From Octopus vulgaris (taxonomy: Eukaryota), in assembly GCA_951406725.2 (NCBI GenBank), contig OX597824.1:92008001-92072000 (forward strand): a stretch of DNA of 64,000 nucleotides. Reading direction: 5' to 3'. Below are positions 21,370 to 22,343 of the stretch, one piece after another. The position numbers and the translations under genes were made by a program. Below the pieces are notes generated by a model. The model was not told where the DNA came from and did no database searches. It worked only from the letters and a program-made list of their open reading frames with translations. The stretch's first letter is position 1; every line of letters begins with the position of its first letter.

Positions 21370-21451
<82 letters not shown>

Positions 21452-21453
<2 letters not shown>

Positions 21454-22276
21454 CAATATAGGGTAGCAAAAAAATTCAGCAGAAATTATTTTGCTACCAG
21501 CGGTCTAGTGAGAAAAAAGGAAATAGTCAGAGACTATTTATAAATTCAACAGCAAAATTAAGGAACGGCCATAATAGGCCGTTCAACCCACTAGAAATAA
21601 CAGCCAAGGCTTCAACCGCAAAATAGTAGTAATTCCGTAAATCAGGAGAAAATTAAAAAATCAGGAGAAACAGGGTAAATGTTTTTTAATCTTCTCCTGA
21701 TTTACGGAATTACTACTATTTTGCGGTTGAAGCCTTGGCTGTTATTTCTAGTGGGTTGAACGGCCTATTATGGCCGTTCCTTAATTTTGCTGTTGAATTT
21801 ATAAATAGTCTCTGACTATTTCTTTTTTTCTCACTAGACCGCTGGTAGCAAAATAATTTCTGCTGAATTTTTTTGCTACCCTATATTGATTAATTATGAA
21901 TTTTCTGTTTAATTCCGAAATGGAATCGGCAGCTTATATTTGCTGCCGATAAATTGGCGCGAGTACGATGATTTTGAAAATTTTAGATTAGATATTGCCG
22001 AAGCGGTAGTGGTGCTGCCTCGTGTAAATATCTCTCCCTCCTGGCTTACTTTACTGATGAATCTGTTGACCTATGGAAGATTAACTTGATTTAATTTAAT
22101 CAGGCTGATTTACCATTAAAAAACGATGAAACAATGCATTGTATAAAGTGAAACAGGGTAAATGTTTTTTTAATTTTCTCCTGATTTACGGAATTACTAC
22201 TATTTTGCGGTTGAAGCCTTGGCTGTTATTTCTAGTGGGTTGAACGGCCTATTATGGCCGTTCCTTAATTTTGCTG
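21452..22276 (+). mobile_element. Non-autonomous Penelope/retrozyme-like element: 209-bp inverted copy + 483-bp unit + 127-bp direct repeat, flanked by (TA)n
   Basis: 21452-21660 is the reverse complement of 21682-21890; 22150-22276 repeats 21667-21793; hammerhead at 22048-22149; (TA)n on both sides; no ORF. Confidence 0.75.
22048..22149 (+). ncRNA. Type I hammerhead ribozyme with extended stem II
   Basis: acttta CTGATGA [67-nt hairpin] GAA ACAATGCATTGT A taaagt: 6-bp perfect stem I, invariant core, 12-nt palindromic stem III, GUA cleavage triplet (cut after 22143). Confidence 0.8.

Positions 22277-22343
<67 letters not shown>

Follow-up and report, generated by a model that had tools for sequence, protein, structure and literature searches.

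Non-LTR retrozymes of metazoans are non-coding tandem repeats with one type I hammerhead per unit, low GC content and reported units of 51-972 bp, mostly fewer than seven in number, and a link between them and Penelope-like elements (PLEs) was argued from co-occurrence and pLTR homology (PMC7229834; bioRxiv 10.64898/2026.07.22.740005). Circular RNAs have been reported for other animal retrozymes (PMC7229834), and one of nine tested retrozyme dimers cleaved (bioRxiv 10.64898/2026.07.22.740005). EN+ PLEs, as described for Neptune, Naiad and the Penelope pLTR, combine 5′ truncation, partial tandems and an inverted 5′ copy with a tail at one end, microsatellite targets and a hammerhead in the repeat (PMC8557442, PMC3846280); the origin of their tandem and inverted repeats and of their one-sided tails has been named an open question (PMC8557442). 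The hammerhead variants of PLEs are of type I, with an enlarged helix II of 6-8 bp and a palindromic helix III suited to dimer cleavage, they occur in opposite-strand pairs 100-700 bp apart, and a circle has been proposed to act as template for PLE cDNA longer than one unit (PMC4209133); those published cleave weakly or require protein (PMC4209133, PMC11167929). The PAc protein (Poseidon, Anolis), a predicted dimer, cleaves and extends both strands of AT-rich targets in vitro, starting at two internal sites downstream of the hammerhead that bound the tail (PMC11167929). PLEs and hammerheads have also been listed in cephalopod genomes, in texts whose available parts do not give the anatomy described below (PMC13282606, PMC6962438).

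Here we analyze a repeat of Octopus vulgaris contained in a 64,000-nt stretch of DNA, hereafter the window (assembly GCA_951406725.2, contig OX597824.1, positions 92,008,001 to 92,072,000 of the forward strand). The element type is already known: the repeat works like a non-autonomous EN+ PLE and, judged by its sequence, classes with the non-LTR retrozymes, whose non-coding tandem structure, single type I hammerhead per unit, low GC content, unit number mostly below seven and co-occurrence with PLEs it shares, its 483-bp unit falling inside their reported size range. Tandem units each with a type I hammerhead are found at the level of the family, in arrays of up to 14 laps. All the EN+ PLE traits named above recur in the octopus family, as do the type I form, palindromic helix III, enlarged helix II and opposite-strand pairing at 100-700 bp of the PLE hammerhead variants; with PAc the family shares two internal start sites, AT-rich targets and, as we propose, the cutting and extension of both strands.

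What is distinctive here is a 105-nt folded tail, a stem II of 67-78 nt, head-to-head multi-unit arrays and a counted rule of one site per end. Unlike the non-LTR retrozymes as published, the octopus family places its arrays at dispersed (TA)n sites, as head-to-head insertions whose 3′ ends are fixed at two positions. Unlike the EN+ PLEs, the family has no ORF and no homology to any sampled autonomous family, its folded tail of ~105 nt compares with 30-40 bp there, and the one-tail rule, counted here in 96 of 108 two-armed insertions, is worded as "often" or "optionally" in the corresponding descriptions (PMC8557442, PMC3846280). Stem II contains internal loops, and the motif further differs from the published PLE variants in a helix I of at least 8 bp and a 12-nt palindrome (PMC4209133). 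PAc start sites are non-homologous to the target, whereas the octopus ends abut AU-rich sequence able to pair with a TA primer; for PAc, moreover, start sites are reported to be alike on both strands, and the main text does not describe a one-site-per-strand coupling (PMC11167929). The literature searched, with supplements and subscription papers outside it, held no count of one-site-per-end pairing, and Figs. S1-S2 of PMC11167929 may bear on the point.

Anatomy of the window copy and extent of the family

Positions relative to the ribozyme are written cut+n, with cut+1 being the first base past the predicted cut (window 22144); for the first unit of the window copy, cut+n corresponds to window position 21660+n. 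The copy comprises the following features.

21376..21449, no strand: left (TA)n target tract (sequence)
21452..21660, minus: inverted arm, spanning cut+22 to +230, its 3′ end a site-B end with the 105-nt tail (repeat alignment)
21661..21666, plus: 6-nt junction insert, repeating sequence of 21639-21651 (sequence)
21667..22149, plus: one full 483-bp unit, forward arm, beginning at cut+7 (repeat alignment)
21747..21838, plus: predicted three-way junction, outer stem 21747-21755 with 21830-21838 (consensus fold, 18 subfamily copies)
21779..21792, plus: site A in its internal read-through copy (cut+~123-135), where 3′ ends of insertions preferentially fall
21844..21880, plus: hairpin immediately upstream of site B (consensus fold)
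21879..21897, plus: site B, likewise in its internal read-through copy (cut+~230-241), the other position favored by 3′ ends
21927..21948, plus: additional hairpin downstream of site B (sequence)
22046..22151, plus: type I hammerhead motif, predicted cut after A22143 (sequence, folds, alignments)
22046-22053 with 22144-22151: hammerhead stem I, 8 bp, continuing beyond an internal loop
22054-22060 and 22128-22131: hammerhead core, CTGATGA and GAAA
22061-22127: hammerhead stem II, 67 nt, with the helices that the sequence-only reading had drawn
22131-22142: hammerhead stem III, a 12-nt palindrome
22150..22276, plus: partial second unit, stopping at site A, the 3′ end of the forward arm
22277..22339, no strand: short slipped repeat at the A end, then the right (TA)n target tract (22278-22339)

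The copy lies with its site-B end at the left and its site-A end at the right, and contains one hammerhead. Its direct repeat (21667 to 22150, period 483 bp) is 98% identical over 127 nt and its inverted arm of 209 bp shows 99% identity, so that both repeats reported by an initial reading of the sequence alone were re-found, together with the (TA)n tracts on both sides and the three hairpins it had listed, which we locate at 21758-21779, 21803-21821 and 21844-21880. The first two are enclosed, with site A between them, by the predicted three-way junction. The absence of an ORF is equally confirmed, the longest ATG frame in a tandem dimer of the unit measuring 26 aa and an RT + GIY-YIG frame being absent. 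The same reading had placed a unit boundary at 22150, a position that merely mirrors the 5′ truncation of this copy's forward arm at cut+7; that truncation point sits behind the 6-nt insert repeating nearby sequence, and the insert itself likely arose by primer realignment followed by microhomology joining of both arms. The wider view of a young non-autonomous element with Penelope-type insertion anatomy is supported. Two pairs of short dispersed repeats lie near the element (24603-24682/24788-24867 and 22398-22456/22724-22782), the former of which resembles what we take to be a short interspersed repeat of octopus genomes.

A search of the genome (2.8 Gb, 227 contigs) places the copy in a family of over 2,000 units, part of them in head-to-head arrays, with partial tandems of variable 5′ truncation among them; the subfamily labels S1-S9 are our own. 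Exact patterns recover 125 hammerheads of the window's group, 226 of the sister subfamily S8 (~82% alike) and 681 instances of the motif before site A; site B in its read-through form was matched 2,101 times, and no reversed control gave a match. The insertions studied number 163, a small fraction of the family taken by order of position or by best score, and form four samples. The hammerhead region served to pick 92 of them after removal of three duplicates, the site-A list on contigs C1-C2 supplied 30, with a segmental duplicate entered a single time, 21 were chosen for an S8 hammerhead or adjoin one, and the site-B motif supplied 20. An inverted 5′ copy, and thus a two-armed structure, is present in 108 of the 163. 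Two insertions 376 kb apart on C2 (L196 and L197) have the same arm breakpoints and probably reflect a segmental duplication. Contigs of four sequencing runs guessed as RNA cover the unit piecewise, which is evidence of neither transcription nor a circle. Across window positions 21661-22280, A>G is the commonest difference in runs X14, X16, X17 and X20 (guessed RNA), at 12-18 places per run; since several of these match subfamily differences, they are not claimable as editing.

Outer 3′ ends at sites A and B

The initial reading overlooked the outer 3′ ends of the insertions, which fall at two other fixed sites, used one each. They cluster at site A (cut+132) and site B (cut+237), 105 bases apart. 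Of the 225 A or B ends in samples 1 to 3, 222 continue into (TA)4; because both insertion ends lie in (TA)n, a target-site duplication is unreadable. The consensus fold of 18 copies predicts site A in the single-stranded linker of the three-way junction and site B just after a hairpin, with a support for this region that comes mostly from one-sided changes, both-side changes being found in 3 of 43 pairs.

The two sites are paired with great regularity. Sample 1 holds 48 A+B insertions, one A+A, no B+B and seven other among 56 two-armed ones, with an exact p of 5.5e-13 over the 49 insertions with both ends classed. A+B accounts for 17 of 18 two-armed insertions in sample 2 (one other), for 15 of 17 in sample 3 (two other, the rearranged L219 having been moved to that class by eye), and for 16 of 17 in sample 4 (one other), where L235, masked before by an unrelated fragment, was added by eye and the irregular L238 was counted. 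All four samples together thus give 96 A+B, one A+A, no B+B and 11 other (n = 108). Furthermore, a minute B arm was present at the far end in 5 of 28 seemingly single A arms. A ends with slipped di- or trinucleotide repeats, and short B ends that are repeated, were observed at window 22270-22280 and in L094, L093, L127 and L187; we infer a resemblance of such slipped ends to primer realignment by a telomerase-related RT.

Autonomous RT + GIY-YIG elements are present in the same genome. One family with a 781-aa frame carries the CxxxxCxxC linker motif given for Neptune and Nematis (PMC8557442), and its copies end in (TA)n at two sites ~38 nt apart. Among 48 loci examined, all nine genuine two-armed insertions within range are A+B, a count from which the "A+o" and "B+o" labels and the only "A+A" label were dropped as fuzzy matches to an internal site ~340-410 nt away. 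The A+B geometry is therefore common to the retrozyme family and to an EN+ PLE of the same genome. Among 90 GIY-YIG loci, out of thousands of candidates in the genome, none yielded an autonomous element whose repeat matches the unit; these loci gave a small unrelated insertion of the retrozyme family in L055 and otherwise short weak matches only.

The hammerhead motif and the 5′ ends

The core, the three stems and the predicted cut after 22143 that had been claimed for the window copy could all be located, and a type I descriptor matches this motif alone in the window and one of 100 shuffled windows. Internal loops are present in both stem I and stem II. The 121-nt hammerhead region folds with z = -4.3 (none of 200 shuffles as good), and holding the core unpaired in the window copy yields the three-helix form at a cost of 0.7 kcal/mol; in its unconstrained fold the probability of stem III is only 0.10 and that of the stem II base only 0.23. 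Both are weak in monomer folds of most subfamilies. For the stem III palindrome of the window copy, an intermolecular duplex is predicted at -15.1 kcal/mol, compared with 0.0 for the hairpin. A correspondence between array-forming subfamilies and a monomer-stable stem III was considered and rejected, as it holds for S8 only (P 0.85), with eight S9 representatives at 0.01-0.10. An Rfam scan of the region, one of the checks proposed with the initial reading, returned no hammerhead family among 31 matches at E ≤ 10, as would be expected with a 67-nt stem II, and a genome search with RF02275 gave four sub-threshold matches, all elsewhere.

Comparison of genomic copies was another proposed check. 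A set of 27 units, whose least alike members share 76% identity, keeps 10 of 11 core positions invariant as against 249 of 468 other columns (Fisher p = 0.011), the single deviation being A14, which differs once; N7 can be any of T, A, C and G, and H17 is confined to A and C, never G. Across 18 subfamily representatives, 93.1% of cells pair (slid controls 28-45%), and stems I, II-base and III covary, with both-side changes in 12 of 38 pairs (among them 5/8 in stem I, 3/6 in the stem II base and 3/6 in stem III) that stem from related sequences and hence are not independent events. Stem I and the 12-nt palindrome have been rewritten between S1 and S8, ~82% alike, with complementarity kept. Together, these patterns of sequence change indicate ongoing selection on the hammerhead fold. 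In a single case (L007:2093-2212), a 9-nt deletion between two short microhomologies removes the cleavage site.

The length of stem II, singled out at the start as unusual for the class, is real and ranges from 67 to 78 nt across subfamilies, while the feature is not unique to this repeat. Hammerhead-like motifs with a stem II of ~40-70 nt, several of them with a palindromic stem III, lie in unrelated repeats (L056:-, L061, L074:- and L091:+5163), and the genome seems to hold several long-stem-II hammerhead-like families.

The proposal that self-cleavage sets the 5′ end of the RNA stands in part. A naive uniform test found no enrichment (9/148 vs. 8.0 expected) in hammerhead-picked loci, which are biased by the picking, and was replaced by at-risk counts. 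By these, pooled without overlap, 31 of 180 5′ ends lie at cut+1 to +40 where 12.8 are expected, and the best 40-nt window begins at the cut, with none of 2,000 simulations as high. In the cut+1 to +40 interval, the C1-C2 census (45 insertions) has 20 of its 73 ends, with 6.8 expected; S8 has 7 of 31 there (2.2 expected), and S1-S7, beyond the first hammerhead, 8 of 101 (3.6 expected); in 20 further loci (L220-L239) the pile-up was not seen (3/26 vs. 2.2 expected). Against the proposal stand a peak that lies at +16 to +30, the 20 loci that do not reproduce the excess and the fact that most arms cross the cut; the cut site is a partial barrier at most.

A transcription start, or drop-off with microhomology in the U-rich tract at cut+17 to +30, could produce the same pile-up in place of a ribozyme cut, and we rate this explanation as a serious competitor that falls somewhat short of an even chance. 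It would account for the position of the peak (16 ends vs. 4.8 expected at +16 to +30), for the weak signal at +1 to +15 (8 vs. 4.4, p = 0.07) and for the missing excess in the further 20 loci, but other U- or AU-rich stretches show no such accumulation (150-175, 9 vs. 9.8; 200-250, 17 vs. 21.8; 420-445, 5 vs. 6.3), and the start of the best window at the cut also argues for the ribozyme. A TATAAA at the cut, considered as a promoter, was rejected, being missing from several subfamilies with the same 5′ ends.

Arrays, template and the two arms

Counted by cuts crossed, the arms of the array-forming subfamilies fall into 69 with one, 38 with two, 25 with three, 11 with four and six with five, up to a maximum of 14, and survival per lap over the first four laps is 0.55, 0.66, 0.44 and 0.55, a distribution as for steady drop-off on an endless template. 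S1-S7, the window's group, rarely lap: 114 arms cross one cut, 16 two and none three. Over 92 array units, differences within an array average 0-3.4 substitutions; the seven units of L220 show none in both arms, and the six units of L225 are 0.5 substitutions apart and 13 from the nearest other array. Variants shared in near-periodic fashion occur in L222, L225 and L226. The arrays do not all fit one monomer circle, for the units of J181 are mosaic at two sites, the three variants of L221 are confined to one of its arms, and the rearranged locus L219 unites two subfamilies. Comparison of opposite arms reveals no in-register identity (1.5 substitutions at the same index, 0.88 at different indices). 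On this evidence, a circle step in the mobilization would have slightly better than an even chance.

The alternative has twin priming occur without any circle, on linear transcripts that read through tandem copies already in place, and would derive the long arrays from multi-unit source loci or from later unequal crossing-over. The mosaic units of J181 and the near-periodic variants are what it predicts, the enrichment of 5′ ends directly after the cut matches what a linear cut end would give, PAc in vitro has uncleaved RNA for its main substrate (PMC11167929), and local amplification has been proposed for retrozymes (bioRxiv 10.64898/2026.07.22.740005). We nonetheless consider it unlikely: opposite arms lack in-register identity, many arrays are homogeneous yet distinct from other arrays, arms on both sides span several units while their ends keep exactly to A and B in (TA)n, the chance of surviving a lap stays roughly constant, and linear copying alone would shorten the element in every round. 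That the hammerhead is a mere vestige of a PLE repeat, no longer cleaving while the element spreads via sites A and B alone, is highly improbable, for although the missing Rfam match, the weak stem III and stem II base of most monomer folds and the passage of most cDNAs beyond the cut would suit it, the core is invariant where N7 is free and H17 never G, and stems I and III have been rewritten in compensatory fashion between the ~82%-alike subfamilies.

L1 twin priming likewise uses a primer from each of the target strands and yields a head-to-head inversion closed through microhomology, in which the arms cover separate stretches of the RNA and the second start has no fixed position; the octopus arms, in contrast, overlap and start at two fixed sites. 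For 31 of 48 pairs it is the A arm that has the greater 5′ reach, with the 105-nt tail on the B arm, so that neither arm copies or nests in the other and each would have needed its own priming on the RNA. In 11 of 54 arm pairs both arms share alleles absent from every other sampled arm; comparison with the nearest neighbor is neutral overall (22 closer, 11 equal and 21 further, n = 54), and L221 and L219 have unlike arms. A single template molecule for both arms is favored by these comparisons, though not proven. The junctions show overlaps of 1-5 nt and some palindromic centers. One priming event followed by fold-back or self-priming on the antisense template, with the tail made by endonuclease resolution, is the reading given in the available text of PMC3846280 and PMC8557442 and would explain such overlaps and centers as well as the few pairs with matching breakpoints (e.g., L200, 463/463; L188, 28/28), but it has very little probability here, as the second arm should then be a subset of the first, which the 31 non-nested pairs are not, and in the sense RNA a conserved stem precedes each of the two sites A and B.

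The best reading of the window element is that of a non-autonomous PLE, or non-LTR retrozyme, inserted by two coupled priming events, and we hold it probable that a non-coding repeat with a hammerhead motif is mobilized in trans by a PLE RT-endonuclease and primed twice, at A and at B. A Penelope-like enzyme, probably of Neptune type, would nick both target strands within (TA)n and start once at each site on the RNA of the element; the ribozyme would cut part of the read-through RNA, probably as a dimer via the palindromic stem III, and the cut monomers would likely be circularized. Both cDNAs would extend 5′-ward with a steady chance of falling off, often through at least one cut site, and their two ends would be joined head to head by microhomology, whereas a minority of templates, linear with a ribozyme-cut 5′ end, would produce the modest pile-up of 5′ ends just after the cut. 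A more specific proposal goes beyond this reading and is offered tentatively, with the balance of probability against it: an asymmetric Penelope RT-endonuclease dimer may grip the two structured start sites on a single circular ribozyme RNA of 483-492 nt and assign one site to each nicked strand of the (TA)n target, both subunits then rolling round the circle to give a head-to-head array in one event, as a general rule for EN+ PLEs.

The counted one-A-one-B rule, common to an autonomous element of the same genome, excludes simple fold-back, and the insertion ends tie a retrozyme to PLE machinery. If true, a one-site-per-strand rule general to EN+ PLEs would be the source of their inverted repeats and one-sided tails. 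With its two start sites and ribozyme motif, the 483-nt RNA also makes a small substrate for in vitro tests of twin priming and rolling-circle reverse transcription.

Several further PLE families are present in the genome. In autonomous Neptune-type families, hammerhead-like motifs of atypical form and altered core lie a short way ahead of the A ends (L083:4560-4670 and L087:4300-4480), and the reiterated motifs of the L083 repeat are presumably CRE-like and CCAAT-like. A very young and abundant GIY-YIG family (L240-L264) has open frames of up to ~1,000 aa or more, a tandem spacing of ~6.2 kb on C10 and C16 and a long (CA)-rich 3′ region that holds a GC-rich island. Another family (L265-L280) has two 3′ ends ~55 nt apart, of which the outer often closes in short reiterated triplets before (TA)n.
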